From: Kiritimatiellia bacterium
GTDB lineage: Bacteria; Verrucomicrobiota; Kiritimatiellia; RZYC01
Reading direction: 5' to 3'
DNA length: 64,000 bases
Assembly (NCBI GenBank): GCA_028708815.1
Contig: JAQVYB010000003.1
Coordinates: 6,267-70,266, forward strand
Positions 14,351-52,802 of the stretch are shown piece by piece. Below the pieces are notes generated by a model, which was given only the letters and a program-made list of their open reading frames with translations, searched no databases and was not told the DNA's origin. The stretch's first letter is position 1; every line of letters starts with the position of its first letter. The position numbers and the translations under genes were made by a program.

Positions 14351-14364
14351 ACAGGAGAGCAATC

Positions 14365-15867: not shown

Positions 15868-15900
15868 AGTGGATATGACGGAGAAGGAACGGATAGAAGG

Positions 15901-17355: not shown

Positions 17356-18371
17356 GCAAAAACCAATACAATCCCGAAATTCATCACCGCCGGTCGATCC
17401 GGCTGAAGGGGCACGACTATGCCGGGGGCGGGTTGTATTTTGTGACGATGTGCGCGCATCGGGAGTTTATCGAAGCAACACGGGGCTCTCCGTTCCTGCC
17501 GCTTCACAAACTCATCCAGGAGCGCATGCAGATCACTGCTGAAAAATGTCCCCACATGGAATGGGGCGAATCGGTGATTATGCCGGATCATTTTCATGCG
17601 CTCATCCGCATTCGAAAAGGCGGCCACCAATCGCTGGGCGATATCATCGGCGGCTTCAAAGCGGCGGTAACGCGCGAATTTCGCAAAAGCATTCGGGGCG
17701 AAAGGGGCGAGAGGGGCGAGAGGGGCGAGAGGGGCGAGAGGGGCGAGGCAGGCCTCGCCCGTACGGGCGGCATCAATGCCGCCCCTATCAATGCCGCCCC
17801 CATTTCTGCCGCCGTTTCCGATAGAATGCGCGTCTGGCACCGCAATTATTATGAAATGATTGTGCGCACGCCGGAGGCGGAAAAGAAGATCGCCCAATAT
17901 ATCCAGATGAATCCGTGGCGGTGCGTGCAGCAACTGAAAAAGGGCCTGCGCGGCATGGGCAACCCTGCACTATGGACCGCCCAAAAGCTAGGTTTACTGT
18001 GCAGTCGCAATGCGCCGCGCCCCAGGAGCCTGCCAAACGCCCCAGTCTATTTGAGCGGCTTCCACTCCCCTATGGAAAAGGAGATTTTCAAAAAGCTGCT
18101 GGAGCTGAAAAAACCAATCATCTGGTGCCCTGCATGGGGTCTGAAACGGGCCGCATTCGCACCCGGCGTGCGCGAAGCGCTTGAGGAAAATCGCATGCTG
18201 ATTTTAGAAATGCACGACACCGCAGGCGATCTGGCCGCGGCTGAACAGCGCAATCGGTTCGTGCTGGAACACGCCGACAAACTCTGGCTCCCGCACGTCA
18301 CCCCCGGCGGCATGCTCGATCGGCTGGTAAGTGAATTGAAAATGAAAAATTTTGAATTAGGAGTTTTATGA
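17352..18371 (+). CDS. Fusion protein: REP-associated tyrosine transposase (RAYT/TnpA_REP, HuH-Y1) domain with internal RGE x5-6 repeat, fused to a C-terminal DprA/Smf-like (SLOG) Rossmann domain
   Basis: N-terminal ~200 aa align motif-by-motif to E. coli RayT from memory (RRSIRLKGHDY..GGLYFVT; PDHFHALI; WHRNYYEMIV...YIQMNPW). C-terminal ~150 aa follow DprA Rossmann pattern (CSRNAPRPRS; YLSGFHSP; LILEMHDTAGD; RNRFV; VTPGGMLDRL). ATGA overlaps at both ends (17352 and 18368). Confidence 0.5.
   Translation: MSKNQYNPEIHHRRSIRLKGHDYAGGGLYFVTMCAHREFIEATRGSPFLPLHKLIQERMQITAEKCPHMEWGESVIMPDHFHALIRIRKGGHQSLGDIIGGFKAAVTREFRKSIRGERGERGERGERGERGEAGLARTGGINAAPINAAPISAAVSDRMRVWHRNYYEMIVRTPEAEKKIAQYIQMNPWRCVQQLKKGLRGMGNPALWTAQKLGLLCSRNAPRPRSLPNAPVYLSGFHSPMEKEIFKKLLELKKPIIWCPAWGLKRAAFAPGVREALEENRMLILEMHDTAGDLAAAEQRNRFVLEHADKLWLPHVTPGGMLDRLVSELKMKNFELGVL
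17694..17747 (+). repeat. 9-nt in-frame tandem repeat (gagaggggc; RGE x ~6) inside the RAYT-DprA gene
   Basis: Read directly from sequence; 4 perfect units plus degenerate flanking units. Confidence 0.85.
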
Positions 18372-19678
18372 ACGACCGAAATAAAAATAGACCGGGCTAC
18401 AAGGAAACCAAAGTCGGGTGGATTCCTGAGGAGTGGGGAACGAAATCAGGTGAAGAAATAACGGCTCTAATAAGCAAGGGCGCATCCCCAAGATGGCAAG
18501 GGTTTAACTACACAACTGAAGGCATGTTATTTATCACCAGTGAAAATGTGCGCGATGGAAAACTTGATATCAGTAGACCAAAGTTTCTTCCCGTCGAGTT
18601 CAACGACAAGATAAAAAGAACCCAACTCAAGAAATATGACATTCTAATAAACTTGGTAGGAGCCTCAATTGGTCGATCATGTCTAATCCCGATCGACCTA
18701 AGCCTCGCAAACGTAAACCAAGCAGTGGCTGTATTTCGCCTCAAAGACAAACGCATAGCATCATATATGGCCGTTTTCTTTCAGATGTCAGACACAGTTA
18801 AGCGCATCTTAGACATGCAAGTAGACGCAGCGCGTCCAAATCTCTCTCTATCTAATTTACGTGACTTTAAATGCCCTCTTCCCCCAATCCTTGAACAGGA
18901 GGCAATTGTGGAAGTGTTGGGGTGCTGGGATGAGGGGCTGGAGACGATTGAGAACCTGATTGAGGCGAAGAAGCTGCGCAAAAAGGGGCTGATGCAACAA
19001 CTGCTGACGGGAACCCGGCGGCTGCCGGGGTTTTCCAAGGATTGGAAAACTGTGAAGCTGGGAGATATTTGCACCGTGGTAAAAAAAGCGGTCGGCGAAA
19101 AGAAAATCATTCCCATGAGTCTTTCGGCAGGCAAAGGGTTTGTCGCGCAAGCCGATAAATTTGGCCGCGATATTTCCGGCAAGCAATATTCGAAATACAC
19201 CCACCTGACTAAAGGATGCTTCACTTACAACAAAGGCAATTCAAAAACGTTCCCGCAGGGTTGCGCCTACCTGCTGGAAGATTATGACGAAGTCGCAGTG
19301 CCGAATGTTTTTATCAGCTTCAAATTCGACGATGGAAAAGCGGATAACAAATTCTTTCAACAGGTCTTCGCTGCAAACATGCACGGAAAGGATTTGATAA
19401 AATTCATCAATAGCGGCGTTCGTAATGACGGCCTGCTCAACCTAAACACAACATGGTTTATGCGGATTACATTCAACCTCCCCACCCTCAAAGAGCAGAA
19501 GGCGATTGCAGCAGTGTTGGAAACGGCGGATGAGGAGATTCGTTTGCTGGAGGCGGAGCGCGATGCGCTGGCCGAACAGAAAAAGGGGCTGATGCAGAAG
19601 CTGCTGACGGGGGAAGTCCGTCTGCCGGCATTTCGGAAAAAACAGCCTGACAAGAAGCGGCAGGACTATTCGGAGTAA
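18368..19678 (+). CDS. hsdS: Type I restriction-modification specificity subunit, full-length (two TRDs)
   Basis: 436 aa; two TRDs each followed by conserved spacer (LIEAKKLRKKGLMQQLLTG and LEAERDALAEQKKGLMQKLLTGE); low-GC TRD regions. Confidence 0.85.
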   Translation: MNDRNKNRPGYKETKVGWIPEEWGTKSGEEITALISKGASPRWQGFNYTTEGMLFITSENVRDGKLDISRPKFLPVEFNDKIKRTQLKKYDILINLVGASIGRSCLIPIDLSLANVNQAVAVFRLKDKRIASYMAVFFQMSDTVKRILDMQVDAARPNLSLSNLRDFKCPLPPILEQEAIVEVLGCWDEGLETIENLIEAKKLRKKGLMQQLLTGTRRLPGFSKDWKTVKLGDICTVVKKAVGEKKIIPMSLSAGKGFVAQADKFGRDISGKQYSKYTHLTKGCFTYNKGNSKTFPQGCAYLLEDYDEVAVPNVFISFKFDDGKADNKFFQQVFAANMHGKDLIKFINSGVRNDGLLNLNTTWFMRITFNLPTLKEQKAIAAVLETADEEIRLLEAERDALAEQKKGLMQKLLTGEVRLPAFRKKQPDKKRQDYSE

Positions 19679-19682
19679 GATT

Positions 19683-22600
19683 ATGAGCGAAGACAGAATA
19701 CCCTACACAGCCACCCCGAGTTACCTGGAGGCGGTGCAGTCGCAGCTTCCCGCGTTGCAACTGCTGATCAATATGGGCTGGGACTACCTAAGCCCCGAGG
19801 AGTGCGTTGCGCTGCGCGGCGGACGGTTGAGCACCGCTCTGCTGGAGCCGGTGTTGCTCGACCATATCCGCGAGAACTGCCGGTTCGATTTCAAGGGGCA
19901 GACGCATGCCTTTACGGAGAATGCCATTCAATCCGCTGTGCAGGCGCTGAAGAATGTCCGCGCCACCGGGGCAACATTCCAGAACGAAGAGGTGTATGAT
20001 CTGCTCTGTCTGGGCACCAGTCAGCCGCAGACGGTGGAGGGCGACACGAAGAGCTTTGATCTGAAATTTATCGATTGGGAGAACTGGGAGAATAATACCT
20101 ATCACTGCACGGCTGAGTTTAAGACGGAGCGAATGGGACAGTCGAAGCACTACATCCCGGACATTGTGCTGTTTGTGAACGGCATTCCGGTGGTGGTCAT
20201 CGAATGCAAGCGGGCGGCCTATACCGACCCGAACAAGAAGCCGATTGATCTGGCAATCGCCCAACTTGGCGATTACCAGCAAGGCGACGGCATCCCGCAG
20301 GTATTCCTGACAACGCAATTGCTGCTGGCGCTGGCCCGCGACAAGGCGGAATTCGGAACAACCGGCACACCACGCAAGTTCTGGAGCCGGTGGAGGGAAG
20401 AATATATCGATGAGCAAATCCGCGACCTGATCGGCATCACGGTGCCCAATGATCAACTCGCCAAGTTGCTGGACGGCCCATTTGCCACCAGCAAGCAGCC
20501 GTTTAAGAAGCTCCTGAACGAGGGACGTTCGATTTATGAGCAGGATCGGACACTGTATGGAACGTGCAGGCCGGAACGGCTGCTGGAGCTGATGTTTCAG
20601 TTTATTCAGTATGATAATGGCCAGAAAAAGATTGCCCGCTATCAGCAGTATTTTGCGGTGAAAGACATTCTGAAACGAGTCACCGCCGCACCGGAAGGCG
20701 AACAGAGAGCCGGTGGCGTGGTCTGGCACACACAGGGCAGCGGAAAGTCGCTGACGATGGTGATGCTGGCTAAGGCTCTGGCGATTTCGAAACGGATCGA
20801 GAACCCGCGCATCATTCTGGTGACCGACCGCATCGATCTGGATGACCAGATTTACGGGACGTTTAAGGCGTGCGGGATGAAGGTGGAACAGGCGAGTACC
20901 GGTGCGCATCTGATCGAGATGCTGCAGGATGGCAAGCGGCATATTATCACGACCCTCATCCATAAATTTGCCGCTGCAACCGCCCGTTCGGCTATCGAGG
21001 TAGATCATAATACCTTCGTCCTGGTGGATGAGAGCCATCGCAGCAACTACAGCGAGCACCATGCCCGGATGAAGCTCGCACTCAAGGGAGCCTGTTTTAT
21101 CGGGTTTACGGGCACGCCACTGGCCAAAGATCCCAAAAAGAACACCTTCTTTAAATTCGGCGAACTGTTTAAACCGGCCTATACGATTGCGCGGGCTGTG
21201 GAGGATAAAGCGGTTCTGCCACTGATTTACGAGGCACGGCATGTCCCGCAGCCGGTTCAGAAAGAGGCGATCGACCGTTGGTTTGAGCGGCTGACCAGCT
21301 CCCTCACCGAAGCGGAACGAGCGGATTTGAAGCGGAAATATTCTTCTGAAACGCAGCTCAACAAAGCGGCCCAGAAAATCCGGATGGTGGCGTGGGATGT
21401 GAGCCTTCACTACTCGATGGCTTATCAGGGCACGGGAATGAAGGGGCAGTTGGTTGCTCCGGACAAAGAAGCCGCACGACTATACAAAAAAACACTGGAT
21501 GAGTTCAGCATGGTCACCAGTGAGGTGCTCGTGTCCGGACCCGGGACCCATGAAGGGGAAAGCAGGAACCCTGAAGCAACAGCCGAAGAAAAAGTGTTCT
21601 GGCAGGGGATGATGGATCGCTACGGCTCTGAGGAGAAATACAACAAGCAGCTTATTAACGCGTTCAAAAAGGCAGAGGAGCCGGAAATCATTATTGTGGT
21701 TGATAAGCTTTTGACCGGGTTCGACGCGCCCTGTAACACGGTTCTTTACCTCGCCCGTACACTGAAAGATCACAGCCTGCTCCAGGCGATTGCCCGCGTG
21801 AACCGGCTTTATGAGGGTAAGGAATTCGGTCTGATTATGGATTACAGCGGTGTCATTGAGAATCTGGACGAAGCGATCGATTTCTACACCAATCTGGCCG
21901 ACTACAATCATGAAGATCTGGTCGAAACCGTGACCTATATCACCGATGAAGCCGCAAAGCTTCCCCAGCTCCACTCAGACCTGTGGGAGCTGTTCGCCGC
22001 AGTAAAAGGCAGCTCGGATACCGAAGTCTATCAGGAACACCTGCGGGACGAAGAACGCAGAGCGAAGTTCTACGAGCGGTTCAGTGCTTTCGCTCGGGCG
22101 ATGGCCCTGGCTCTTGCCTCAACGACATTCCTTGAGCAGACCCCGGAAAAACAAATCAATATCTACAAGAACGACCTGAAGTTTTTCCGTAACCTGCGGA
22201 CTGAAACAGCGATCCGCTTTCAGGAGCGCATTGATTTCTCTGAATACGAACCGAAAATCCGCAAACTTCTCGACACGCACGTTGGCGCGAGCGAAGTCGA
22301 ACAGCTTATTGAACCCATCGACCTGCTGAATACCGAGCAGCGCGAAGAGGTCCTCGGCAGAGAAGACCTGAGCGAAGAATCAAAAGCCGACATGATCGCA
22401 TCCGCCGCGCGACACAGTATCGAACAGGAGTTTGAGAAAGACCCTGCCTTTTTCACAAAATTCTCGAAACTGCTGGAGGATACCATCGAGGCATTGCATC
22501 AGAAGCGGATTCAGGCCGCTGAAGCGCTGGCAAAAATTAAAGATATTGCGATTAAGGTGGCCACGCATACCGATGAGGATGTGCCGAAAACGCTCGTTGG

Positions 22601-22889
22601 CCACGATATGGCGCGGCGGTATTACGGCACGGTTCAGGAAGAGTTGGCAGAATACACAACCGCGAAACCGGATGTGGGCGCAACCATTGCACTGGAAGTG
22701 GTCAAGCGTCTCAACCCACACAAAGTTCGTGACTGGACCAACAACACGGATGCGCTCAATGCCATGCGCCGTGAAATAGACGATATCTTCTTCGAAGCAG
22801 CAGATGAGTTCGGGTTGGAGTTTCCGTTGGAGCTGCAGGATAAACTAATCGATAAATGCCTGGAAATTGCGATTGCCAATGAAAAATAG
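19683..22889 (+). CDS. hsdR: Type I restriction enzyme endonuclease/helicase subunit R
   Basis: 1068 aa; HsdR N-terminal nuclease region, DEAD-box helicase motifs (GSGKSLTMV Walker A; DESHRS), C-terminal domain. Confidence 0.9.
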   Translation: MSEDRIPYTATPSYLEAVQSQLPALQLLINMGWDYLSPEECVALRGGRLSTALLEPVLLDHIRENCRFDFKGQTHAFTENAIQSAVQALKNVRATGATFQNEEVYDLLCLGTSQPQTVEGDTKSFDLKFIDWENWENNTYHCTAEFKTERMGQSKHYIPDIVLFVNGIPVVVIECKRAAYTDPNKKPIDLAIAQLGDYQQGDGIPQVFLTTQLLLALARDKAEFGTTGTPRKFWSRWREEYIDEQIRDLIGITVPNDQLAKLLDGPFATSKQPFKKLLNEGRSIYEQDRTLYGTCRPERLLELMFQFIQYDNGQKKIARYQQYFAVKDILKRVTAAPEGEQRAGGVVWHTQGSGKSLTMVMLAKALAISKRIENPRIILVTDRIDLDDQIYGTFKACGMKVEQASTGAHLIEMLQDGKRHIITTLIHKFAAATARSAIEVDHNTFVLVDESHRSNYSEHHARMKLALKGACFIGFTGTPLAKDPKKNTFFKFGELFKPAYTIARAVEDKAVLPLIYEARHVPQPVQKEAIDRWFERLTSSLTEAERADLKRKYSSETQLNKAAQKIRMVAWDVSLHYSMAYQGTGMKGQLVAPDKEAARLYKKTLDEFSMVTSEVLVSGPGTHEGESRNPEATAEEKVFWQGMMDRYGSEEKYNKQLINAFKKAEEPEIIIVVDKLLTGFDAPCNTVLYLARTLKDHSLLQAIARVNRLYEGKEFGLIMDYSGVIENLDEAIDFYTNLADYNHEDLVETVTYITDEAAKLPQLHSDLWELFAAVKGSSDTEVYQEHLRDEERRAKFYERFSAFARAMALALASTTFLEQTPEKQINIYKNDLKFFRNLRTETAIRFQERIDFSEYEPKIRKLLDTHVGASEVEQLIEPIDLLNTEQREEVLGREDLSEESKADMIASAARHSIEQEFEKDPAFFTKFSKLLEDTIEALHQKRIQAAEALAKIKDIAIKVATHTDEDVPKTLVGHDMARRYYGTVQEELAEYTTAKPDVGATIALEVVKRLNPHKVRDWTNNTDALNAMRREIDDIFFEAADEFGLEFPLELQDKLIDKCLEIAIANEK

Positions 22890-23649
22890 CCTCCAGCCAG
22901 ACCGTGTGATTGAATTCGGCAACCGCCGGATTCCGTATCGGTTGACACGGCAATCCCGAAAGCACATCCGTATTCTGGTTGCCCCTGATCTGACCGTGCG
23001 TGTTTCCGCCCCGCCCCGGGCAGAAGAGGAGCAAATCGAGCATGTTCTAAGGCAGAAAGCCCGCTGGATTGCACGGAAGCTGGACAAAGTCAGAAATTTC
23101 CACCCCCTGCCTGCGCCCAGGGAATATATCAGCGGGGAAACCTTCTGCTATCTGGGGCGCCAGTACCGACTGAAAGTGGACAAGGGAGAAAAAGCCCCCG
23201 CCAAACTAAAAGGGAAATTTCTCTATGTGACCGTGCCGGACAAACAGGATCGGGATGCAGTCAAAAAAGCTGTCGAGAATTGGTATAAGCAACGGGCGGA
23301 AGAAACGGTTTTGCGCTGTCTGGATAAATGCACGGGCGTGGCCGGACGGCACGGCATACCGGCAGCCGCGCTGACTCTGCGCAAAATGCGCACCCGCTGG
23401 GGAAGTTGCAGCAGCAAGGGGCGCATTACCATCAACACCAACCTGATTCAGGCTCCGATTCACTGCATTGAATACGTCATCATGCATGAGCTCTGCCATC
23501 TGAAGCACCACAACCACTCCAAAGCCTTCTATAAGCTTTTAACGCAATGTATGCCCGATTGGCCCAAGAGAAAAGAGGCCCTGCAGCGTGTCGTTATCCC
23601 GCGCGAAAACGGAAACACACCTGTGGGACAGCATGGGGTCACACGATAA
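22879..23649 (+). CDS. DUF45/YgjP-like (M48/WLM-family) zinc metallopeptidase, type I RM-associated
   Basis: HEXXH motif in HELCHLKHHNH; size and position match the metallopeptidase commonly encoded 3' of hsdR; ATG at 22879 overlaps hsdR stop by 11 nt. Confidence 0.7.
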   Translation: MKNSLQPDRVIEFGNRRIPYRLTRQSRKHIRILVAPDLTVRVSAPPRAEEEQIEHVLRQKARWIARKLDKVRNFHPLPAPREYISGETFCYLGRQYRLKVDKGEKAPAKLKGKFLYVTVPDKQDRDAVKKAVENWYKQRAEETVLRCLDKCTGVAGRHGIPAAALTLRKMRTRWGSCSSKGRITINTNLIQAPIHCIEYVIMHELCHLKHHNHSKAFYKLLTQCMPDWPKRKEALQRVVIPRENGNTPVGQHGVTR

Positions 23650-33290: not shown

Positions 33291-33355
33291 TTTGCCAGCC
33301 GAAGCCTTCCCCGGTATGATGCGTGTCTGTTGTCCTTATATCCATTGAGGTAATC

Positions 33356-34996
33356 ATGACGGAAGAACCACGCGAACCTGAAAGCAACGAAGACCCCGAC
33401 GTACCCGAGGAGCCCGAAGACGAACAACCCGGCAAAGAACCCCTGCGTGACGCCCTGGCTCAATTGCAGGAGATGCTGAAGGGTGCCAACATACAGTTTA
33501 TTCCCTTCGGGGGAGAGACCCGGCGGCCTCAATCCGAAAAAGGCGCCACCCCGGACCCCGAGCCCGCCGCAGAGGATCTGCTCAAGCGCGTGCGTGAATT
33601 CAACCTCAAGCCGCGCGAAGTGAAGGACTATCTGGATCGCTTTGTGATTAAGCAGGATGAAGCCAAAAAGGTGCTGTCCGTGGCCATCTGCGATCATTAC
33701 AATTACGTGCGTGAATGCCTGGAGCATCCCGGGCAGGCCGATCGCAATCACATCAAATCCAACATTCTGCTCATGGGGCCCACCGGCGTGGGCAAGACCT
33801 ATCTGATGCGCTGCATTGCCCGGTTGATCGGCGTGCCGTTTGTGAAGGCCGACATCACCAAATTCTCTGAGACCGGCTATGTCGGTTATGACGTGGAGGA
33901 CATTGTTCGTGACCTCGTGAAGTTGGCCGATGGAAATACCGACGTGGCCCAATACGGCATCATCTACATTGATGAAATTGATAAAATTGCCAATCGGTCG
34001 GGTCCCGGTGGCGGCAAGGATGTGAGTGGGCGGGGCGTCCAGGTCAACCTCCTCAAACTAATGGAGGAATCCGACGTCAATCTTTTCAGTCAGACCGACA
34101 TCATCGGCCAGATGCGCGCCATGATGGAAATGCAGCGCGGCAAGGAACAGAAGCGTACCATCAATACCCGGCACATGCTCTTCATTGTGAGCGGCGCTTT
34201 CGACCAGCTCGCTGAGCAGGTTCGAAAACGCGTGGAAAAAACCATGATCGGATTTGTGCCCGATCCCGGGCGCATCGGGCGCGACGCCACCGAATATCTG
34301 GGGCAGGCCGCCACGCGTGATTTTATTGACTACGGTTTTGAGCCTGAATTCATTGGGCGGCTTCCTGTGCGCGTGGCCTGTGATCAACTCACGCGCGATG
34401 ATCTGGAGCAGGTGCTGCTCAAATCTGAAGACAGCCTGCTCGATCAGTATCGCGCCGATTTCCGGGGCTACGGCATTTCCATGGAGATTGCTGTGGAAGC
34501 GGTGGGGCACATTGCCGAGCGGGCCTCGAAGGAAAAGACCGGCGCACGCGGACTGATGACCGTGCTTGAAACCATTTTCCGCGACTATAAATTCGAGTTG
34601 CCTTCCACCACCGTAAAGACCCTTCATCTGACCGATGTCGCGGTGACCGAGCCCCGCGAGACGTTGGATGGACTTCTTCTGGAATCCCGGCACGAGCAGG
34701 AAGCCCTCTGGCGCGAGGATGCGCGCCGCTTTGCCGAACAACTGGGACGCGAAGACGGTTTTGACATCCGCTTTGACGAGGAGGCTCTCGATCTCGTGCT
34801 GGTCCGCAGTCAGGAGGTCGGAAGAACGATCCGCGGCTACTGCGAAGAACGCTTCAAAGATCTGTTTTACGCCCTGAAGCTGATTGCGCAGCGTACCGGG
34901 AACAAGGCCTTTACCCTCACTCGGAAGCTTGTGGAAAATCCCGAACGCGAAATATCCGCGTGGGTTGTCGAGAGCTTCAAAAACGAAGTGGAATAG
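33356..34996 (+). CDS. ClpX-family AAA+ ATPase lacking the N-terminal zinc-finger domain, with acidic N-terminus
   Basis: ClpX-like motifs (Walker [16 protein letters not shown], Walker [11 protein letters not shown], sensor/arginine finger regions); no C4 zinc-binding motif; long acidic N-terminal segment. Confidence 0.6.
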
Positions 34997-35069
34997 GTGC
35001 TCCGAGGGAGCGTTCCAATGGTTGGAAAACAAAAAGGACGTTGGAGAAAGCGCCCCCTCCGAAGGTTCA

Positions 35070-38000
35070 TCACCGGCGGTGGAAGTCTTCGAAAATCATG
35101 TAGAGGCTGGGAATGAGCAGCAGGGTGATCATGGTGGCGAAGAGGAGTCCGTAGCCGAGGGAGAGGGCCATCGGGATGAGGAATCGGGCCTGCCGGGAGG
35201 TCTCGAAGATCATGGGGGCCAGACCGCCGAAGGTGGTCAGGGTGGTCAGCAGAATGGGGCGGAATCGCTGGACGCCGGCAAGGACGACGGCATCATGCGC
35301 AGAGAGCCCTTCGCGTCGGCGGCAGTTGATGAAATCGATGAGTACGAGTGCGTCATTCACCACCACGCCGGAGAGCGCGACAATACCGATGACGCCCACC
35401 ATGCTAAGGCTGTATCCCATGATCAGGTGGCCGGCCACCGCGCCGACCAGTCCGAACGGAATGCTCATCATGACGATCAGGGGTTGCAGATAGCTCCGGA
35501 AAGGAACCGCCAGCAGCGCGTAGATGGCAATCAGGACCATCGGGATGGTCATCCAAAGACTTTTCATGCTTTTCTGATCTTCCGCCTGATGACCCTGATA
35601 GCTGTAATTCAGTCCGGGATAGCGGCGCTTGAGCGTGGGCAGGACATCGTCATCCAGGGCCTTCATGATGCGCCCGGCGCCCGAACGCGGGCGTACGTCG
35701 GCGGTGACGGTCATCGTGCGTCGGCTGTTGCGATGGGTAATGGACGTGTAGGCGCGCCCGCGCGTCATTTTCACCACATCCTGAATGGGCGCTTCACCGC
35801 CGGAGGGTGTTTTCAGCATCAAGTCCCCCAGCAGTCCTTCGCTGGTGCGCTCGTCTTTTGGAAGGCGCAGTTTGATCTTCAGCTCATCGCGTCCGCGCAG
35901 TTGGCGGACGACTTCCACGCCTTCGTAGGAGCTTCGCACCTGCTGGGCCACACTGCGTGCGGTGAGCCCAAGGCTGCGTCCCGCCGGGAGCATTTCAAAG
36001 CTGAGTTGTTCTTTGCCGCGCTGAAACCCATCGTCGATATCGCTGACCTGCGGGAAGGTGGTGAGGGCTTTGGCCAAGTCAACCGCTGCCTTTTCGAGGG
36101 TGGTGACATCGCTGTGTGTGAGTTCCACCGTTAGTGCCGACCCGCTGCCCGGGCCGCCGCGGTCCGATTGCAGGCGGATGTATTCCACGCCCTTGATCTG
36201 TCCGATCGCCTTCCGCCAGCGATTCACAAATTCCAGGGTGCCCATGATTTTATTACGGATCTTTGGATCGGCCAGGTACACGCGGATATCCGCCGAATGG
36301 CTGCCGGATCTTCCGATATGCGCAAAGGTGCCGGTGACCAACTCGGGGTGGCCGCAGTCTTTGAGCACCTGCTGCGCGGCGGCATAGACCCGGTGCACCA
36401 CGTCTTCGGTGCGCTTCACGGGGGATCCGTAGGGCAGTACGATTTCCGCATAGGCATAATCACTTTCCGCGCGTGGGAAGGTTTCAAACCCGAGGCGTCC
36501 GCTGACCATGAGGCCAATGGTCAGAGTCAGGATAGCGCAGGCAATGGCGACCACCAGGTAGCGGTGAATCAGGCATTTTTCCAGGAAGGGTGCGTAGTCA
36601 TCACGAACCCAATGAATGAACCATGCGCTGAATCGTTTTTGGCGGTTGTGTATTCGTTCGGCCAGGCCGGTACGCGGGCGATCCTTGTGATGTCCGAGGT
36701 GTGAGGGGAGGATGAAGATGCATTCAATCCAGGAGATCAGGAATACGGAGATGACCACGACCGGGATCATGCCCATGACACGGCCCATCATGCCGGGCAG
36801 AATCATTAGCGGAATGAAGGCCACCATATTGGTCAGAATGCTGAAGGCCACAGGCGAGCTGACTTCGATGGTTCCGCGTATGGCGGCCGTCAGAAACGAC
36901 TCGCCTTCCTGGTGCCGGCGATACACATTTTCGCCCACCACGATGGCATCATCCACCACGATACCAAGGGCCAGCAGATAGGCGAACATGGTCATCATAT
37001 TGATGGTTAGTCCGAACAACGGCATCAGAATCAGCGAGCCAAGGAAGGAGATTGGAATACCCATCATTACCCAGAACGCCAGGCGCAACTCCAGAAAGGA
37101 CCCCAGCAGTAAAAAGACCAGCACCAGGCCGAACGCGCCATTTTTCAGCAGCAGGGAGGCGCGCTGCCAGTAGGTATCCGCCATGTTGCGCTGAATGGCC
37201 ATATGAATGCCGTCCGGCAGGGTTTTTTCGATTTGCAGCATACAGGCTTTGGTGGCGTCGGCCACCTGAATGGGGGTCTGCTCGCCGACGCGATATATTT
37301 CCAGCATCACGGAGGGTTTTCCGTTGTAGGTGGCGAATACGTCGGAATCCTCCATGCCGTCATCAATGGTTGCAATGTCTTCGAGCAACACCTGCGTGCC
37401 ATCGGCGCCGGTCAGAATCGGGATGCGCCCGAATTCCTGCCCGTAGTCCTTTCGCTCTGTCACCCGCACCAGAATTTCGCCGGAAGCGGTTTTCAGTCCA
37501 CCGCCGGGCAGATCCACGGAGGCATTTCCAAGAATCGCAGCCATTCCCTGCAACGTGAGGTTGTAGCGGCGCAGGTTTTCCTGCGGCACGGAAATGGAGA
37601 TTTCGAGACTGCGCGTGCCGGTTACATCCACCTGGGTGATATTCGGATCTTCCAGCAATTGATCACGTACCCGTTCGGCCAGCGTCTTCAACACTTTTTC
37701 CGGCGCGTCGCCATAGAGTGCCACATTAAGCACTTCGCGGCGGTGCACCTGCAACGTGACTTCCGGACTTTCGGCATTTTCAGGAAACGTGCGGATGCGG
37801 TCGATCTCGCTTTTGATGTCCTGATACGCCTGAATACTGTCGGCATTCTCCAGCAGCTTGACTCTGATGGAGGCGGAACCTTCGTTGGCGCTGGAGTTGA
37901 TTTCCTCCACGTTGGCGATGCCGGTAAGCGCTTCTTCCACGGCCAGCACGATGCCCTTTTCCACCTCTTCGGGGCTGGCGCCCGGATAGGAAACGCTGAT

Positions 38001-38165
38001 CGAAACAATGTTCTCGTCCAGGTCCGGAAAGACTTCCTGTGTGATGGAGGTGAATGCAAAGATCCCGCCCACCAGAAAAAACAGCATGAGCAGATTGGCG
38101 GCCACGTTGTTTTTGGTCATCCAGGCGATCGGGCCGCGCAGTTCCTCAGAAGCATCGGCGCTCAT
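35070..38165 (-). CDS. RND efflux transporter permease (AcrB/HAE1 family)
   Basis: 1031 aa, 12-TM RND topology, conserved AcrB-like N-terminus and periplasmic loops. Confidence 0.85.
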   Translation of the reverse strand: MSADASEELRGPIAWMTKNNVAANLLMLFFLVGGIFAFTSITQEVFPDLDENIVSISVSYPGASPEEVEKGIVLAVEEALTGIANVEEINSSANEGSASIRVKLLENADSIQAYQDIKSEIDRIRTFPENAESPEVTLQVHRREVLNVALYGDAPEKVLKTLAERVRDQLLEDPNITQVDVTGTRSLEISISVPQENLRRYNLTLQGMAAILGNASVDLPGGGLKTASGEILVRVTERKDYGQEFGRIPILTGADGTQVLLEDIATIDDGMEDSDVFATYNGKPSVMLEIYRVGEQTPIQVADATKACMLQIEKTLPDGIHMAIQRNMADTYWQRASLLLKNGAFGLVLVFLLLGSFLELRLAFWVMMGIPISFLGSLILMPLFGLTINMMTMFAYLLALGIVVDDAIVVGENVYRRHQEGESFLTAAIRGTIEVSSPVAFSILTNMVAFIPLMILPGMMGRVMGMIPVVVISVFLISWIECIFILPSHLGHHKDRPRTGLAERIHNRQKRFSAWFIHWVRDDYAPFLEKCLIHRYLVVAIACAILTLTIGLMVSGRLGFETFPRAESDYAYAEIVLPYGSPVKRTEDVVHRVYAAAQQVLKDCGHPELVTGTFAHIGRSGSHSADIRVYLADPKIRNKIMGTLEFVNRWRKAIGQIKGVEYIRLQSDRGGPGSGSALTVELTHSDVTTLEKAAVDLAKALTTFPQVSDIDDGFQRGKEQLSFEMLPAGRSLGLTARSVAQQVRSSYEGVEVVRQLRGRDELKIKLRLPKDERTSEGLLGDLMLKTPSGGEAPIQDVVKMTRGRAYTSITHRNSRRTMTVTADVRPRSGAGRIMKALDDDVLPTLKRRYPGLNYSYQGHQAEDQKSMKSLWMTIPMVLIAIYALLAVPFRSYLQPLIVMMSIPFGLVGAVAGHLIMGYSLSMVGVIGIVALSGVVVNDALVLIDFINCRRREGLSAHDAVVLAGVQRFRPILLTTLTTFGGLAPMIFETSRQARFLIPMALSLGYGLLFATMITLLLIPSLYMIFEDFHRR

Positions 38166-42354: not shown

Positions 42355-43047
42355 CTAGGGCTCGCGATTGAGTTCGTTGAGCATGAGTTCACGGGCGCTG
42401 ATGTAGGGGCCGGGGAAAAACTCAAAGAGGTCGGGCGTTTGTTCGTCGTCGTCGAACATTTCATCGAGCGAATCATAGGCGGCCCGGTCATAGTGCAGGA
42501 GTCCTTCAATTTTTCGGGTCTCGATGTCCTGAATAATGAAAGCCAGTTGATCTTCGGTGGAGTCGTGCGAGTTAAAGAGAACGTATTTTTTGGCGGGGTG
42601 GACTTTTTCGATGTTCCGAGCGTAGATCATGTATTTCATGTATTCGATGATACGTTCATCGAGTTCGGCCTCGAGAATGAAGAGGCGTTCGGCGAGTTCG
42701 GACCGGGTGAATACGAGGTGCACCTGAGGCGCCGGAATATCATCGGGCAGGGCATGCGCCAGCGTGGTGATGAACTCACGGAATTGCTGCTCGCCCTCTT
42801 CGATGGTCTGGTCGTGCAAAGGCATCCAGTAGATCATGATGTCGAGTTCGGGGTCGTGATAAAGCAGGGGCTTGTCTACGGAGAAGACAAACGAGCACTC
42901 TTCGCAGGTGACCACGTTTAATTTGTTGCCTATCAGCTCATTGCGCAGGTCCGGGTCTTCGACGGTGTTGATGGCGTCATAGAGATCCACCTCTTGGGGG
43001 TGGTTGCACTTGGGACAGGCGATGGGATATGTTTTCAGTTGTGACAT
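42355..43047 (-). CDS. CpXC-domain protein
   Basis: Two CxxC motifs (CPKCNH; CEECSF) in N-terminal ~50 aa; start placed at MSQLKTYPIACPKC. Confidence 0.5.
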   Translation of the reverse strand: MSQLKTYPIACPKCNHPQEVDLYDAINTVEDPDLRNELIGNKLNVVTCEECSFVFSVDKPLLYHDPELDIMIYWMPLHDQTIEEGEQQFREFITTLAHALPDDIPAPQVHLVFTRSELAERLFILEAELDERIIEYMKYMIYARNIEKVHPAKKYVLFNSHDSTEDQLAFIIQDIETRKIEGLLHYDRAAYDSLDEMFDDDEQTPDLFEFFPGPYISARELMLNELNREP

Positions 43048-43311
43048 GTGCGGGATAGTAGAGGGCAAAAAAGGCCGGATCAATAGCAGAATGGAAGAAA
43101 TTACGGTATCTCCTTGAAGTTGACCATACGTTGGGGTACGTTGCCGCATTCATTCGGGCAAGTGCCGTTTTTTTTTCGGGAACATTCGTTCAGGCCGGTA
43201 AAGTATCCCGGTGCCGGAAAGATTCCGCATTTGCATGGGTGGGGTGTGCGTCCTTGCCGGGGCGGCATGCCGCCCGGGGTATACATTAACCAGGAGATCA
43301 CAGGAGACTAC

Positions 43312-44001
43312 ATGAGTTTCTTCGGCCTATTCGGATTCGGAAAGAAGAGTGGCGGCGGTTCGTCCAGCCGCGGAAAACGGTGTTATATTGTGGATTGTGC
43401 GATGATGGAGTCCTCCAAGGGGGAGCGAATGCGCATGGCTCCGCGTAATCAATTGGACCTGCTTCGGCGCCTTTCGCGGTTTGTTAAGAAGGAGCAGGTT
43501 GATCTGTGGGCGGTATTTGACGGCAAGGAGCTTCGGGATGTCCCGGATGGCAAGAAGTACATGGATGTGATGGTTTCCTATGTGCCGAAGGCATCGGAGG
43601 TGTCTCAGGCTGTCGCTAAAATGTGCGCCGGCAGAAAAGCGTGCGGGACGCTCGTGATTACATCGGATAAGACCGTGGAACAGGCCGCACTGCGGCAGGG
43701 AGCGGCGTTGATGCATTGCTCCACCTTCAGGAAGGCGTTGGAAGCCGATGGCGGGTCATCGTTCGGGGGCGGAGACCGTTCTTCGGGGCGTGACCGTTCT
43801 TCGGGACGGCGGGGAGGCCGTTCGGGTTCATCCGGCTCACGCCGCCCGCCGAGGTCGGGTGGGCAGGCGGACGGATCCGATCGCCGGCCTAATCGTCAGG
43901 AAGGGGAGGCTTCTGCGCGACCGACGGAAGAAACGGTTCCTGCGCGTCCTCCCAAGAATGATTCCGAGGATGCGGTTAGCGACCTGATTGACCTGGTTTA
44001 A
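43312..44001 (+). CDS. Possible NYN/YacP-like domain protein with Arg/Ser/Gly-rich disordered tail
   Basis: ATG 43312 with CAGGAG upstream; N-terminal ~150 aa weakly resemble NYN-domain RNase-like proteins; C-terminal ~80 aa RS/RG-rich low complexity. Confidence 0.3.
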   Translation: MSFFGLFGFGKKSGGGSSSRGKRCYIVDCAMMESSKGERMRMAPRNQLDLLRRLSRFVKKEQVDLWAVFDGKELRDVPDGKKYMDVMVSYVPKASEVSQAVAKMCAGRKACGTLVITSDKTVEQAALRQGAALMHCSTFRKALEADGGSSFGGGDRSSGRDRSSGRRGGRSGSSGSRRPPRSGGQADGSDRRPNRQEGEASARPTEETVPARPPKNDSEDAVSDLIDLV

Positions 44002-44030
44002 CGGGCGCCGACAGATTTTTACACTATGGA

Positions 44031-44061
44031 AAAGAGCGGGGGTTTCCCCCGCTCTTTTTTT
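44031..44061 (+). terminator. Rho-independent terminator
   Basis: GAGCGGGGG-TTT-CCCCCGCTC stem-loop followed by TTTTTTT. Confidence 0.65.
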
Positions 44062-44152
44062 GCCTAAGCCGCCTATTTCACCCTGGAGCGATTTTTGCTG
44101 CGGAAAGCGGATCAATCGGTATCGTTACTCATGGGAGAATAATCTGAAGAAG

Positions 44153-44229
44153 TTCCAATGATTGGAAAATTCGTACAATAAGTTTCCAATCGTTGGAAAA
44201 AGAATTTAGAAGTTTTCCAACGGTTGGAA
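44153..44229. promoter_or_regulatory. Three phased copies of the palindrome TTCCAA-N3-TTGGAA (candidate operator array)
   Basis: Perfect half-sites at 44153-44167, 44184-44198, 44215-44229; starts exactly 31 bp apart; 18 bp upstream of the ATG at 44247. Confidence 0.55.
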
Positions 44230-44246
44230 AGGGTCTTGATGTGGTT

Positions 44247-45713
44247 ATGAAAGAGGCGTGGTGTCGGACGATCTTCTGGGTGTGTTGCGGGTGGCTGGTA
44301 TGGGTGCCTTGTGCCGCGGCGGCGCCGTCGTTCGACCTGGGCTTTCTGGCATCGCATCAGGAGACGATTACGGGGGCAAAACGGACCACGGCGCTGGGAC
44401 CCTTTTATGAGTCGGTGCAGATGCCGGACGGAACTTCGATGTGGGCGATTCGCCCGTTTTATGTGCAGGCTCTATCGAAGAATGATGAGATGAAGCACGA
44501 GTATTACGTCTGGCCGCTGGCCGCGCAGACGCATTTCAAGCACGAGTTGAAATGGCGGGTGTTGATGGCGTATGGTCGGAAGCGGCATCCGGGTTCGGCG
44601 GATTCGCCGTATATGCGCTTCAACATTTTTCCGTTTTATTTTCAGTTTCGGGATGACGCCGGGAAGCTGAGTGTGGCGGTTTTTCCGATTGGCGGGACGA
44701 TTCGGGATTTCTTTTTTTATGATCGCATTTCGTTTGTGCTGTTTCCGCTGTGGACAGAATGGCAGTCCAATGATGTGTTGAGCGAGAATCTGCTTTGGCC
44801 GCTGATTTCCTGGACGAAGAGTATGGAGAGTGAGGACATTCGACGCTTTCGGATTCTGCCGTTTTACGCGCATTCGGTGAAGAAGGGGCATTACGACAAG
44901 CGGTCGATCCTGTGGCCGATCTGGAATATGTCGCATTATACGGCGGAGGGATCGAAGGGGTATGCGTATGTATTGTTTCCTCTGTTCGGGCGGATCAATC
45001 GGGAGTCGGAAAAGGGGTGGATGTTTCTTCCGCCGTTTATTCGGTTTTCTTATGGGCGGGACGGGAGCTTTGTGAATTGCCCCTGGCCGTTTTTTCAATA
45101 TCGCAATACGAAGTACATGAAGAAATTCACGGTGTGGCCGCTGTACAGCCAACGGCGGGTGGGGCCGCTGATGAACCGCTATTTTTTATGGCCGCTGGGA
45201 TGGCAGCGGTCGGTGGAGTTCAAAAAGAGCCGGGTGTGGGGTTTTCAATTGGTGCCGTTTTTTATTTGGGATCACATGACGCAAAGGCGGGAGGATGGCA
45301 CGTTGGGCGAAGTCACGCATCGCTATGCGAAGCTTTGGCCGTTGTTTACCTATCGGCGCGACAAGGAGGTGCGCCAGACGCGGGTGCTGGAGTTGTGGCC
45401 GTTTCGGGACCATCAGGGAGAGTTGCTCTCGTGGGCGCCGTTCTGGACGCTTTTTTCGCATACGGTGGTTAAGGACAAGGGGTACGATACGGAAATCCTG
45501 TGGGGGTTGTATCGGCAGCAGCGCAAGGGCACGGAACGCCGATACAACGCCCTTTTTCCTCTGTACGATTATGAGCGGGACGAGCAGATCAACGGCGGCA
45601 AAAAAGAATGGTCTTTTTTGAAGGGACTGATAGGTTATAAACGCGAATATGGGATTCGCCGTTATCGATTTTTGTATTTGATCACCTTCGGTGGAAAGCG
45701 AGCGACAGAGTGA
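44247..45713 (+). CDS. Secreted W/P/F/Y-rich repeat protein (recurring WPL/FPL/FPFY motifs), function unknown
   Basis: Start moved to ATG 44247 (signal peptide WLVWVPCAAAAPS), since the longer ORF would run through the operator array; many short aromatic-Pro repeats. Confidence 0.45.
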   Translation: MKEAWCRTIFWVCCGWLVWVPCAAAAPSFDLGFLASHQETITGAKRTTALGPFYESVQMPDGTSMWAIRPFYVQALSKNDEMKHEYYVWPLAAQTHFKHELKWRVLMAYGRKRHPGSADSPYMRFNIFPFYFQFRDDAGKLSVAVFPIGGTIRDFFFYDRISFVLFPLWTEWQSNDVLSENLLWPLISWTKSMESEDIRRFRILPFYAHSVKKGHYDKRSILWPIWNMSHYTAEGSKGYAYVLFPLFGRINRESEKGWMFLPPFIRFSYGRDGSFVNCPWPFFQYRNTKYMKKFTVWPLYSQRRVGPLMNRYFLWPLGWQRSVEFKKSRVWGFQLVPFFIWDHMTQRREDGTLGEVTHRYAKLWPLFTYRRDKEVRQTRVLELWPFRDHQGELLSWAPFWTLFSHTVVKDKGYDTEILWGLYRQQRKGTERRYNALFPLYDYERDEQINGGKKEWSFLKGLIGYKREYGIRRYRFLYLITFGGKRATE

Positions 45714-50314: not shown

Positions 50315-51466
50315 ATGAACACGAAACAGGAAACATATTCCCCGTTGGCCGAGAGAGTCAAGGAACTGGAGTGCCTTTACGCTATCGCGCGCCTCTCCTC
50401 GGAGCAGGATTTGGAATTCGACGGCTTTCTGCGACAGGTCGCCGGGCTTGTGCCGGCGGCCTGGCGCTGGTCGCGGCAGGCCGGTGCGTGCATTGAGTTT
50501 GACAACCGCCGTTTTTCAGGGGGCGCGGCGACGCTTGACGAGTCGTGTTGCCAGCAGTCGACGCTGATCATCAATAAAGTAAAGCGCGGACGGATCGTGG
50601 CGGGGTACCCTGGCGTGCCGCCGCTGGCGGATGACGCCTCTTTTTTGTTGCAGGAGGAGCAGCGCCTGCTGGATGAGATTGCTCGTCAGGTGAGTTATGT
50701 TCTGGAGCGCATCGAGTCTCAGCGGGCGCGCGAGGGCCTGCAGGCACAATTGCGCCATGCGGACCGACTGGCCACAATCGGACGCCTGGCCTCCGGCCTG
50801 GCCCATGAAATCAATGAGCCGCTGGGCTGCGTTCTGGGCTTTGTCCAGTTGCTGTTGAAAGAGGAGTCGTCTTCTCCCTCCGCTCAAAAAGACCTCGAAA
50901 AAATACAAGCGGCAGCGCTTCAGGCACGCGACATCATCCGCAAGTTAATGGTCTTTGCCCGGCACTCACCGGCGGAGCATGGCTCGTTCGATCTGAATAA
51001 GCTGATTGAATCGAGCGCGGACCTTTGGCTTTGGCGGTGTGAGGATGGCAGCATCCGGGTTGCTTTTGAACTGGATGCCCATCTGCCGGCGGTCCTGGGT
51101 AATGAGGGGCAGATTCGCCAGGTCATCACCAACCTCGTGATCAATGCCGTACAGGCCATGCCGGGTGGTGGCCTTCTGACCCTTGCCACCGCCCGGGTGG
51201 AGGGCGGTGTGACCTTGTCGGTGCGCGATACGGGGATGGGTATGACCCGAGGGATCGCTGCAAAAATTTTCGATCCGTTTTTTACGACGAAGGAGGTGGA
51301 TCAGGGGATGGGACTTGGCTTGTCGGTGGTACATGGTATCGTATCGGGTCATGAAGGGGTGATTTCGGTGGAAAGCGAGATGGGGCAGGGGACCACGATG
51401 CGCGTGTTTATTCCGCATGAACGATTGGCGGCCCAGTCGGATGTCGGCGATTCCGGAGAACGATGA
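50315..51466 (+). CDS. Cytoplasmic sensor histidine kinase (GAF-like N-terminus, HisKA, HATPase_c)
   Basis: H-box LASGLAHEINEPL; N box NLVINAVQAM; G boxes DTGMGM, GMGLGLSVV; start at MNTKQ. Confidence 0.7.
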   Translation: MNTKQETYSPLAERVKELECLYAIARLSSEQDLEFDGFLRQVAGLVPAAWRWSRQAGACIEFDNRRFSGGAATLDESCCQQSTLIINKVKRGRIVAGYPGVPPLADDASFLLQEEQRLLDEIARQVSYVLERIESQRAREGLQAQLRHADRLATIGRLASGLAHEINEPLGCVLGFVQLLLKEESSSPSAQKDLEKIQAAALQARDIIRKLMVFARHSPAEHGSFDLNKLIESSADLWLWRCEDGSIRVAFELDAHLPAVLGNEGQIRQVITNLVINAVQAMPGGGLLTLATARVEGGVTLSVRDTGMGMTRGIAAKIFDPFFTTKEVDQGMGLGLSVVHGIVSGHEGVISVESEMGQGTTMRVFIPHERLAAQSDVGDSGER

Positions 51467-51467
51467 G

Positions 51468-52802
51468 ATGGCGACCATAAAAAATACCGTACGCCTGTTG
51501 GCGGTGGATGATTCGGCTGACACGCTGGAGGTCGTTCAGCGTCAGTTGACTGCCGCCGGCTACGAGGTCATTACGGCACCGGGCGTGGCGGAGGCGGTCC
51601 GCGCGCTGGGCACTGTGAAGGTGGACCTGGTGATTACGGACCTGCGCATGCCCCGCTCGGATGGGATGGAACTGGTGCGCCACGTTCGCGAGAACTTGGG
51701 CGAAACGGCGATTGTCATGCTCACGGGCTATGCGTCTATTCCGAACGCTGTCGAGGCCATGCAGACGGGGGCGGACGAATACCTCGCCAAACCCTTTACC
51801 GAAGAAGAGCTGCTGCACGCCGTGACATCGGCGCTGGGCCGGCTTCGTCTGCGGCGTGCAGGCGCTCCGACGGACGAGCCCGTTTCTTCCGAGTGGGGGC
51901 TTCTCAGCGCCTCGCCGGCGATGCGTCGGGTTTTTCGGGATATGAAGAAGGCCTCGCCCAGTAATGCCACCGTGCTGATCAGCGGAGAAAGCGGAACCGG
52001 CAAAGAGCTGGTGGCCCGGGCGATTCATTATCAGGGGCCGCGCCGTGCCGCGCCGTTTGTTCCAGTGAACTGCGGAGGCATTCCCGACGGACTGCTCGAG
52101 AGCGAGTTGTTCGGCTACCGCAAGGGGGCCTTTACCGGGGCCTCCGAATCGCGCGCCGGATTTTTTCAGACGGCGGAAGGCGGGAGCATCTTCCTGGATG
52201 AAGTGGCGGAGTTGAGCCTTCCGATGCAGGCGGCCCTGCTGCGGGTTCTTCAAGACAAAATGGTGTACATGATCGGCGTACGGCAACCGGCTGCGGTGGA
52301 TGTGCGCGTCCTGGCGGCGACCAATCGGGATTTACAGCGCCTGGTGGAGCAGGGGAAGTTTCGGGAGGACCTGTATTATCGGCTCAACGTGCTGCCCATT
52401 GTTTTGCCGCCCCTGCGGGAACGTGGTGATGATGTGTTGATCTTGGTGCGACATTTTGCTGAAAAATTTGCGGGAGAAATGCGGAAGAAAGCGCCCCCCT
52501 TTACAGAGCGGGCCCTGGCCCTGTTGCAGGCGTATTCCTGGCCTGGTAATGTCCGGGAGCTGGAAAATATAGTTCAGCGGCTCGTGCTGATGGTCGAACG
52601 CGACGTGATCGATGCGGCGGACTTGCCGGCCCTCATGCGCTTTTCGGCGGACGGTGATGTGCAGCAGGATTCCTCCCTGGCGGAGGCTGAGGCAGCCCAT
52701 GTCCGGGCGGTGCTGGCCGGTGTGAACGGCAACAAAACCCGCGCCGCACAGATTCTGGGAATCGACCGAAAAACCCTTCGCGAAAAAATCAAAGAACACT
52801 GA
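51468..52802 (+). CDS. Sigma-54-dependent response regulator (NtrC family: REC - AAA+ - Fis-type HTH)
   Basis: REC (LAVDD...DLRMP), Walker A GESGTGKE, GAFTGA motif, ESELFGY, C-terminal HTH (RAAQILGIDRKTLREKIK). Confidence 0.85.
   Translation: MATIKNTVRLLAVDDSADTLEVVQRQLTAAGYEVITAPGVAEAVRALGTVKVDLVITDLRMPRSDGMELVRHVRENLGETAIVMLTGYASIPNAVEAMQTGADEYLAKPFTEEELLHAVTSALGRLRLRRAGAPTDEPVSSEWGLLSASPAMRRVFRDMKKASPSNATVLISGESGTGKELVARAIHYQGPRRAAPFVPVNCGGIPDGLLESELFGYRKGAFTGASESRAGFFQTAEGGSIFLDEVAELSLPMQAALLRVLQDKMVYMIGVRQPAAVDVRVLAATNRDLQRLVEQGKFREDLYYRLNVLPIVLPPLRERGDDVLILVRHFAEKFAGEMRKKAPPFTERALALLQAYSWPGNVRELENIVQRLVLMVERDVIDAADLPALMRFSADGDVQQDSSLAEAEAAHVRAVLAGVNGNKTRAAQILGIDRKTLREKIKEH

Follow-up and report, generated by a model that had tools for sequence, protein, structure and literature searches.

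The subject of this report is a short palindromic DNA element found in a 64,000-nucleotide stretch (hereafter, the window) of contig JAQVYB010000003.1 from a Kiritimatiellia bacterium, where three copies lie directly upstream of an operon encoding a secreted repeat protein and the components MlaE, MlaF and MlaD of the Mla lipid-transport system. The element has the form TTCCAA-N3-TTGGAA (TTCCAANNNTTGGAA), and three exact copies of it, starting at 44153, 44184 and 44215 with a period of exactly 31 bp, make up an array at 44153–44229. Copy 1 (44153–44167, TTCCAATGATTGGAA) is centred on TGA. Copies 2 (44184–44198, TTCCAATCGTTGGAA) and 3 (44215–44229, TTCCAACGGTTGGAA), centred on TCG and CGG, extend into 17-bp palindromes at 44183–44199 and 44214–44230, respectively; neither the copies nor the array as a whole are assigned to a strand. 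The two spacers (44168–44183 and 44199–44214) have AT-rich edges. Only 17 nt separate the last site from an ATG at 44247, and 11 nt from a GTG at 44241. On the other side, about 90 bp before the array, the upstream NYN/YacP-like gene (43315–44001) ends in an intrinsic terminator (44031–44061, plus strand), a hairpin of −24.7 kcal/mol followed by T7, which was found by folding and missed by a terminator consensus scan. This terminator is context and stands outside the repeat family. Exact matching and folding thus bore out the original prediction, made from the letters of the window, in that three 15-bp inverted repeats start 31 bp apart and follow the terminator of the upstream gene.

At the locus orthologous to this one in relative L120 (80% identity), all three sites are kept at 31 bp, one of them with a single mismatch, while the spacers have fully diverged from those of the window; the upstream gene there is a different one. 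Since the sites and their phase persisted while the spacers diverged, we conclude that purifying selection acts on the array over moderate evolutionary distances. At the same position, relative L122 (58% orthologue) carries two sites 19 bp apart, and no array is present there in L121 (57% orthologue) or in the more distant L123 and L124. Judging from this comparison, the array is not an obligatory part of the operon.

The first gene of that operon (44247–45713, plus strand) encodes a protein specific to Kiritimatiellia; it is about 490 aa long, has a signal peptide and W/F/P-rich repeats, and matched no Pfam or NCBIfam family. It has 579 homologues, and those with a source name are labelled as Kiritimatiellia-type organisms. 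The genes mlaE, mlaF and mlaD, a small open reading frame (ORF) and a PHP-domain gene follow. The association of the gene for the ~490-aa protein with mlaE, mlaF and mlaD is kept in relatives L121–L124, usually with an ORF of 106–111 aa and a PHP gene next in line, and the protein may represent an uncharacterised partner of the Mla system. Its start is placed at ATG 44247 in the Logan call and at GTG 44241 in the NCBI call. The original prediction had favoured a later start codon over the TTG at 44193, and rightly so: orthologues lack the extension that TTG 44193 implies, and the public calls begin at 44241 or 44247. The TTG in question lies inside palindrome copy 2 and is a spurious ORF start. 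The TTG of TTGGAA is likewise taken as a start by ORF finders in L008, L012, L024, L035, L037, L040, L083 and other loci, and the N-terminal extensions that read through arrays (FPxxGK, SKxWK, FQxLE) are a systematic annotation artefact in these genomes. Further along the window, 5–8 kb downstream of the array, there are genes for an NtrC-type regulator with a Fis-type helix-turn-helix (HTH) domain (51417–52802) and for two histidine kinases.

The window contains two more copies of the motif, both solitary, without an assigned strand and absent from the original prediction. One of them (TTCCAATGGTTGGAA, 35013–35027) sits in the 73-bp gap between two convergent genes, those of a ClpB-like AAA+ protein (33323–34996, plus strand) and AcrB (35070–38165, minus strand). 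The other (TTCCAAGGATTGGAA, 19033–19047) is located within hsdS (18368–19678), the specificity gene of a type I restriction-modification (R-M) system, where it is translated as F-S-K-D-W-K. Altogether, the window holds five exact copies against 0.01 ± 0.10 expected from 100 dinucleotide shuffles, and none with one or two mismatches was found in its 64,000 nt. The R-M operon that houses the intragenic copy (13760–23649) is composed of a half hsdS, hsdM, a gene combining AlbA_2/Schlafen and a Fic-like_C winged HTH, a gene (17352–18371, plus strand) similar to those of REP-associated tyrosine transposases (RAYTs; REP, repetitive extragenic palindrome), hsdS, hsdR and a YgjP-like gene. The RAYT-like gene overlaps its neighbours by 4 nt on both sides. 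Its product, an HUH/Tyr protein with the Y1 transposase fold, matched NCBIfam NF047646 below the cutoff (E = 3.5e-14), contains a low-complexity insert of the form (GER)n, has an additional domain of about 170 aa at its C terminus and counts four full-length relatives (L141–L144) in metagenomes.

Paired copies of the element turned out to be a trait of a whole clade. One genome per species, from 185,579 species, was scanned for two motif copies separated by a gap of 5–35 bp, a query for which we estimate about 0.1 matches by chance. Among the matches listed, there were at least 117 genome blocks of 8 kb from about 47 metagenome-assembled genomes (MAGs), with a maximum of 18 blocks from a single genome. 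The labels of these MAGs were nearly all Kiritimatiellia, Kiritimatiellales, Tichowtungia or Pontiella, or the older Lentisphaerae, Verrucomicrobia and Spartobacteria. Unrelated metagenome contigs, 355 kb in all, served as a control and yielded one exact copy. The original prediction was to be given up if the motif occurred at random frequency and without positional bias toward promoters. The frequency is far from random; the promoter bias, as described below, is absent, which speaks against the prediction. A full-text search of the literature returned no description of the motif or of Kiritimatiellia repeats. Paired copies were also present in 16 viral contigs from IMG/VR (L125–L140). Five of these (L128, L132, L133, L136 and L140) contain typical Kiritimatiellia-style arrays with a spacing of 31–32 bp; several others are AT-rich, with an off-phase spacing of 28 or 45 bp, and probably represent unrelated repeats.

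The anatomy of the array family was derived from 384 sites. Their consensus, aawTTTTCCAA-N-S-N-TTGGAAAAwtt, is dyad-symmetric in both flanks, and 98% of them have C or G at the very centre. The unit is a dyad-symmetric site of 15–19 bp, or up to about 25 bp when AT-rich flanks are included, repeated 2 to 6 times per array. Spacings between neighbouring sites fall into three groups, 21–22 bp (n = 15), 30–33 bp (n = 167) and 42–44 bp (n = 10), with nothing between them. Within the range of 20–50 bp, all 192 spacings, in all 47 genomes, thus correspond to two, three or four helical turns, even though these phased values make up only 9 of the 31 possible spacings (binomial P about 1e-103). Whether 31 or 32 bp is preferred differs from genome to genome. 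The spacers have a fixed length, AT-rich edges and a GC-rich middle, and are otherwise unrelated in sequence between arrays. Exact copies prevail (385 against 83 with one mismatch), and half of the latter stand in phase beside an exact site. The centre of the site has dialects: it is T-S-A in 76 of the 77 sites of bin-1020 and mostly G-S-C in bin-260, SCQF and CALGXT. Density varies as well; at the low end, the window has about 0.5 clusters per 10 kb, and at the high end, bin-1020 has about 1.8 additional ones over the same length, about half of its sampled gaps holding the motif.

Several arrays have peculiarities of their own. Alternating spacer types at L012 1670–1808 imply duplication of a 62-bp double unit, while the spacings at L029 7580–7730 form a mirror-symmetric pattern (22-31-31-30-22 bp). 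A second, GC-rich palindrome, GCAGGCTSAGCCTGC, occurs in or beside 42–43 bp array spacers at L006 ~1321, L020 ~6984 and L115 ~5622. Its presence in three different genomes suggests that there are occasional mosaic units resembling bacterial interspersed mosaic elements (BIMEs). On the L122 contig, two pairs of sites (2022–2055 and 9923–9956) are spaced 19 bp apart, off the helical phase; each consists of a T-S-A site followed by a GGG-centred site, with unrelated flanks. None of the 117 genome blocks showed such a spacing, but the pattern used to scan for them excluded gaps below 5 bp. CRISPR was rejected as an identity for the arrays, which have repeats of 15–19 bp, spacers of 12–17 bp and 2–6 units at many loci, as against repeats of 21–48 bp and spacers of 26–72 bp in one or a few long CRISPR arrays, which are usually accompanied by cas genes. 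No cas gene was found in the annotation of the window.

Further insight came from the position of the arrays relative to genes, which were called in the loci by a codon-usage caller trained on those loci. The arrays are strongly intergenic and show no preference for gaps that contain promoters. When gaps of at least 30 bp are considered, the motif occupies 73 of 264 tandem gaps (28%), 19 of 61 convergent gaps (31%) and 20 of 79 divergent gaps (25%). Some convergent arrays take up the entire interval from stop codon to stop codon, and independent database gene calls confirmed convergent placement for the copy at 35013 in the window, as well as for L121 3942/3973 and L122 2022/2041. Intrinsic terminators are rarer in motif-bearing 3'-end gaps than in the others (2 of 92 versus 19 of 233; Fisher P = 0.048, 117 genome loci), and canonical intrinsic terminators are rare overall in these genomes. 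We regard this depletion as a weak hint at a boundary role.

About twenty pairs are located inside well-scoring ORFs, and AroB, MnmE, sulfatase and hsdS genes are among those that contain copies. All three reading frames are used by the intragenic copies, giving the peptides F-Q-x-L-E, F-P-x-x-G-K and S-K/N-x-W-K, and a peptide-coding repeat was ruled out on this ground. The array-bearing segments of one AroB and one MnmE orthologue are collinear with their solved PDB homologues, with no insertion and no added residues. It follows that the copies arose by substitution in variable surface segments, and insertion of a mobile unit into these genes was ruled out. Nor did any recurrent gene family emerge beside the arrays. 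Gene calling in the loci gave 780 proteins, of which 344 flank an array, and the 780 were divided into 665 clusters. The genes flanking the largest arrays are unrelated to each other, and no autoregulated binder was found among them.

Taken together, these observations lead us to favour, with somewhat more belief than doubt, the view that the triple palindrome is one instance of clade-wide, helically phased palindrome arrays that serve as sites for a putative DNA-binding protein, dimeric and oligomerising, whose role would be genome-wide. Each palindrome would bind a homodimer of an abundant, sequence-specific protein, and the phasing would place successive dimers on the same face of the DNA, where neighbouring dimers might touch one another and either oligomerise or wrap the DNA. 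Recognition of double-stranded DNA by face-contacting homodimers is suggested because the sites are dyad-symmetric, conserved in sequence without covariation, spaced by helical turns and retained where the spacers are not. A genome-wide role is suggested because the arrays occur at many loci, are indifferent to gene orientation and are present inside genes. The function would then be architectural, that of a nucleoid-associated system, or one of boundary or insulator at gene ends, and not the control of particular genes. As for the array in the window, it fills 77 bp just upstream of the operon start codon, and its occupancy would overlap the promoter or the 5' untranslated region (UTR), so that a local effect on expression of the operon is plausible. 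Such an occupied array could dampen or insulate transcription of the mlaEFD operon, as a local by-product and not as a dedicated circuit. The original prediction of cooperative binding by a dimer on one DNA face fits our data, with 192 of 192 spacings in phase and dyad-symmetric flanks. As to the kind of protein, its parenthetical suggestion of a nucleoid or partition-type factor comes closer to the evidence than the transcription factor at an operator array that it put forward in the first place.

Several observations weigh against this view. The binder itself is putative, and its binding is deduced from sequence. The terminator depletion is marginal, and the array in the window, having a good intrinsic terminator beside it, is not required for termination there. 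The L122 contig carries two pairs at an off-phase spacing of 19 bp. Degenerate copies are scarce, the centres have dialects, and density differs more than four-fold between genomes; in these respects the arrays are more like elements that spread through molecular drive, such as uptake sequences and REPINs, than like classical families of protein sites. Finally, the genome sample is biased, the loci having been picked for a pair with a 5–35 bp gap. One may go further and speculate that the arrays constitute a previously unrecognised chromosome-wide system of insulators, roadblock terminators or domain boundaries, with the protein assembling on them at the borders of genes and, where required, within genes: a chromatin-like layer programmed by sequence, whose genome-specific site dialects co-evolve with the protein; we put this forward tentatively and think it rather doubtful.

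The most immediate alternative is the one from which the original prediction started, namely that a dedicated dimeric transcription factor controls the secreted-repeat-protein/mlaEFD operon, and perhaps a small regulon, through a local operator array. The placement of the array directly upstream of the operon, 11–17 nt from the start codon, its persistence at the corresponding place in L120, and as a reduced version in L122, and the fit of phased palindromes with cooperative dimer binding all agree with such a scheme. However, each genome has many loci where the motif adjoins unrelated genes, convergent gaps are occupied as often as those containing promoters, two of the three loci in the window (19033 and 35013) are not at a promoter, and copies lie inside the AroB, MnmE, sulfatase and hsdS genes. 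Moreover, the orthologous operons of L121, L123 and L124 have no array, and the adjacent HTH regulator that was expected is missing beside the array in the annotation of the window. The operator reading is thus largely refuted by the positional statistics, with the diversity of neighbouring genes also counting against it, and we consider it very improbable. A special form of local control would make the palindromes an upstream activating sequence (UAS), that is, a sigma-54 enhancer bound by an activator of the NtrC type, for instance the product of 51417–52802. The classical distance between NtrC sites is about 32 bp, as at glnAp2, which served as a lead only. The regulator gene and the two histidine kinase genes are encoded 5–8 kb downstream, and a weak −24/−12-like match, TGGAGCGATTTTTGCT, is found at 44084–44099 (plus strand), 54 nt upstream of the array and facing the operon. 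Against this, the window has no more such matches than chance would give (24 found, 34 expected), the one at 44084 is not visibly conserved on reading the upstream regions of L120 and L122, and a match lies no more than 200 bp from 27 of the 144 arrays, where about 26 such cases are expected. As arrays are also found in convergent gaps and inside genes, we give this explanation hardly any credence.

The remaining alternatives deal with the family as a whole. The arrays might be a self-recognition signal spread by molecular drive, either a transformation signal like the DNA uptake sequence (DUS), the uptake signal sequence (USS) or, as recently proposed, the highly iterated palindrome HIP1, or a product of biased repair; sites would build up wherever they are tolerated, since DNA carrying them would be preferentially taken up or restored. 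Sites born by substitution in tolerant segments of conserved genes, in all three frames, are what such a process would leave behind, and so are the dominance of exact copies and the dialects and densities that differ by genome. The motif is clade-wide, and a precedent exists in HIP1, a clade-wide palindrome now linked to transformation. What molecular drive leaves unexplained is the phasing, as spacing by two, three or four turns has neither a known precedent nor a rationale in uptake signals; besides, the density (about 0.5–2 clusters per 10 kb) is one to two orders of magnitude below that of USS, DUS and HIP1, and the intergenic bias is strong. We therefore deem it unlikely. Another possibility would be a selfish repeat of the REP/BIME type, multiplied by a RAYT, with gyrase binding or protection of mRNA 3' ends as secondary functions. 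An interspersed, clustered, mostly extragenic palindrome with a copy number varying by genome resembles such repeats, as does the tandem duplication of 62-bp double units in some arrays (L012), and the window does encode the RAYT-like HUH/Tyr protein at 17352–18371. Nevertheless, no motif flanks this gene or its 80 relatives (355 kb), the element is not tagged with GTAG or CGTC at its end, the consensus being a perfect palindrome, and the core is conserved across the whole class, whereas REPs are species-specific. The spacers are unrelated between arrays, so the arrays were not copied from a master element; those inside genes bring no extra residues; and helical phasing is not a property of REPs. 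On balance, a REP/BIME origin seems quite unlikely to us. It might also be supposed that the arrays act as RNA, forming UTR hairpins or site-to-site duplexes once transcribed and serving in mRNA stabilisation or termination or as a target of RNase III or a protein. The arrays do occupy UTR positions, a palindrome is transcribed into the same RNA whichever way it is oriented, and the array region folds better than its shuffles (−32.5 kcal/mol, z = −4.7). This favourable fold arises because neighbouring copies are complementary to each other; a single site forms only a weak AT-rich hairpin of −4 to −5 kcal/mol. It is the sequence itself that is conserved, with no covariation seen, and the spacing in steps of about 10.5 bp is a property of B-DNA, with copies inside ORFs as well. 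The stem is followed by A residues and not by a U-tract, the terminator scan found none at the array, and no Rfam match came near the gathering score in 43000–45000. An RNA element is, in our opinion, highly improbable.

If the arrays are bound by one protein, as we favour, they would represent a rare case in which genome architecture or the marking of gene boundaries is written in an exact and readily recognised DNA code. The geometric rule of three helical turns should make the binder straightforward to fish out and its function directly testable. Such prospects concern the Kiritimatiellia, which are poorly studied, environmentally widespread degraders of polysaccharides. There are practical consequences, too. 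The motif is an aid to annotation, since its internal TTG gives rise to spurious starts and N-terminal extensions in many gene calls, and it may serve as a taxonomic marker in binning. For the mla operon, an attractive but unsupported regulatory story is removed.

Finally, we would like to compare the element with known systems. HIP1 (GCGATCGC) of cyanobacteria is likewise a short perfect palindrome, hyper-abundant throughout a clade, found within and between ORFs and kept at orthologous positions, all of which we also observed for the Kiritimatiellia element; both lack a tie to particular genes, peptides or RNAs. Opinions on what HIP1 does are divided between a part in nucleoid structure and one in DNA uptake (PMC5861425; bioRxiv 10.64898/2026.06.24.733823). 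HIP1, at 8 bp, is shorter than the present element; its frequency is roughly one per gene, its copies are mostly solitary, and orphan methyltransferases recognise it. The Kiritimatiellia sites, in contrast, measure 15–19 bp, are 10–100 times rarer and strongly intergenic, and form arrays phased at two, three or four turns. REPs are imperfect palindromes of 20–40 bp with a GTAG or CGTC tag, species-specific and flanking RAYT genes (PMC3733652). The likeness lies in interspersed, mostly extragenic palindrome clusters of variable copy number, which include convergent gene ends and are occasionally intragenic; the differences are the absence of a tag and of an association with RAYTs, the class-wide core, the unrelated spacers, the phasing and the intragenic origin by substitution. 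With the DUS of Neisseria and the USS of Pasteurellaceae, the element shares clade specificity, species dialects, substitution in tolerant coding positions, enrichment at gene ends and the dominance of exact copies, but these signals are non-palindromic, 9–12 bp long, present about once per kb and not arranged in phased arrays.

Other parallels are found among protein-binding sites. In NrdR boxes, arrays of the Lrp/AsnC family and NtrC UAS, palindromic dimer sites are about 31–32 bp, or three turns, apart, which allows oligomerisation on one face of the DNA. Those sites are degenerate, have other consensus sequences and are confined to promoters in defined regulons, while the Kiritimatiellia sites are nearly always exact, promoter-independent, present at many loci and also inside genes, and sigma-54 promoters are not enriched near them. 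The sopC locus of the F plasmid consists of phased tandem 43-bp repeats, each with a 16-bp palindrome, and matS and the sites of Noc (NBS) and SlmA (SBS) are palindromes spread chromosome-wide. They, too, are exact palindromes bound by dimers, as would be the case here, and the chromosome-wide ones are independent of genes and possibly intragenic. Centromere arrays differ in being single loci with conserved repeat units, and matS, NBS and SBS in being solitary, unrelated in sequence and limited to tens per genome. Overall, the element is best described as a clade-wide interspersed palindrome, nearest in kind to HIP1 and REP/BIME and nearest in geometry to the sites of NrdR, Lrp and NtrC, and it is set apart from them by exact sites of 15–19 bp, helically phased arrays and free spacers.

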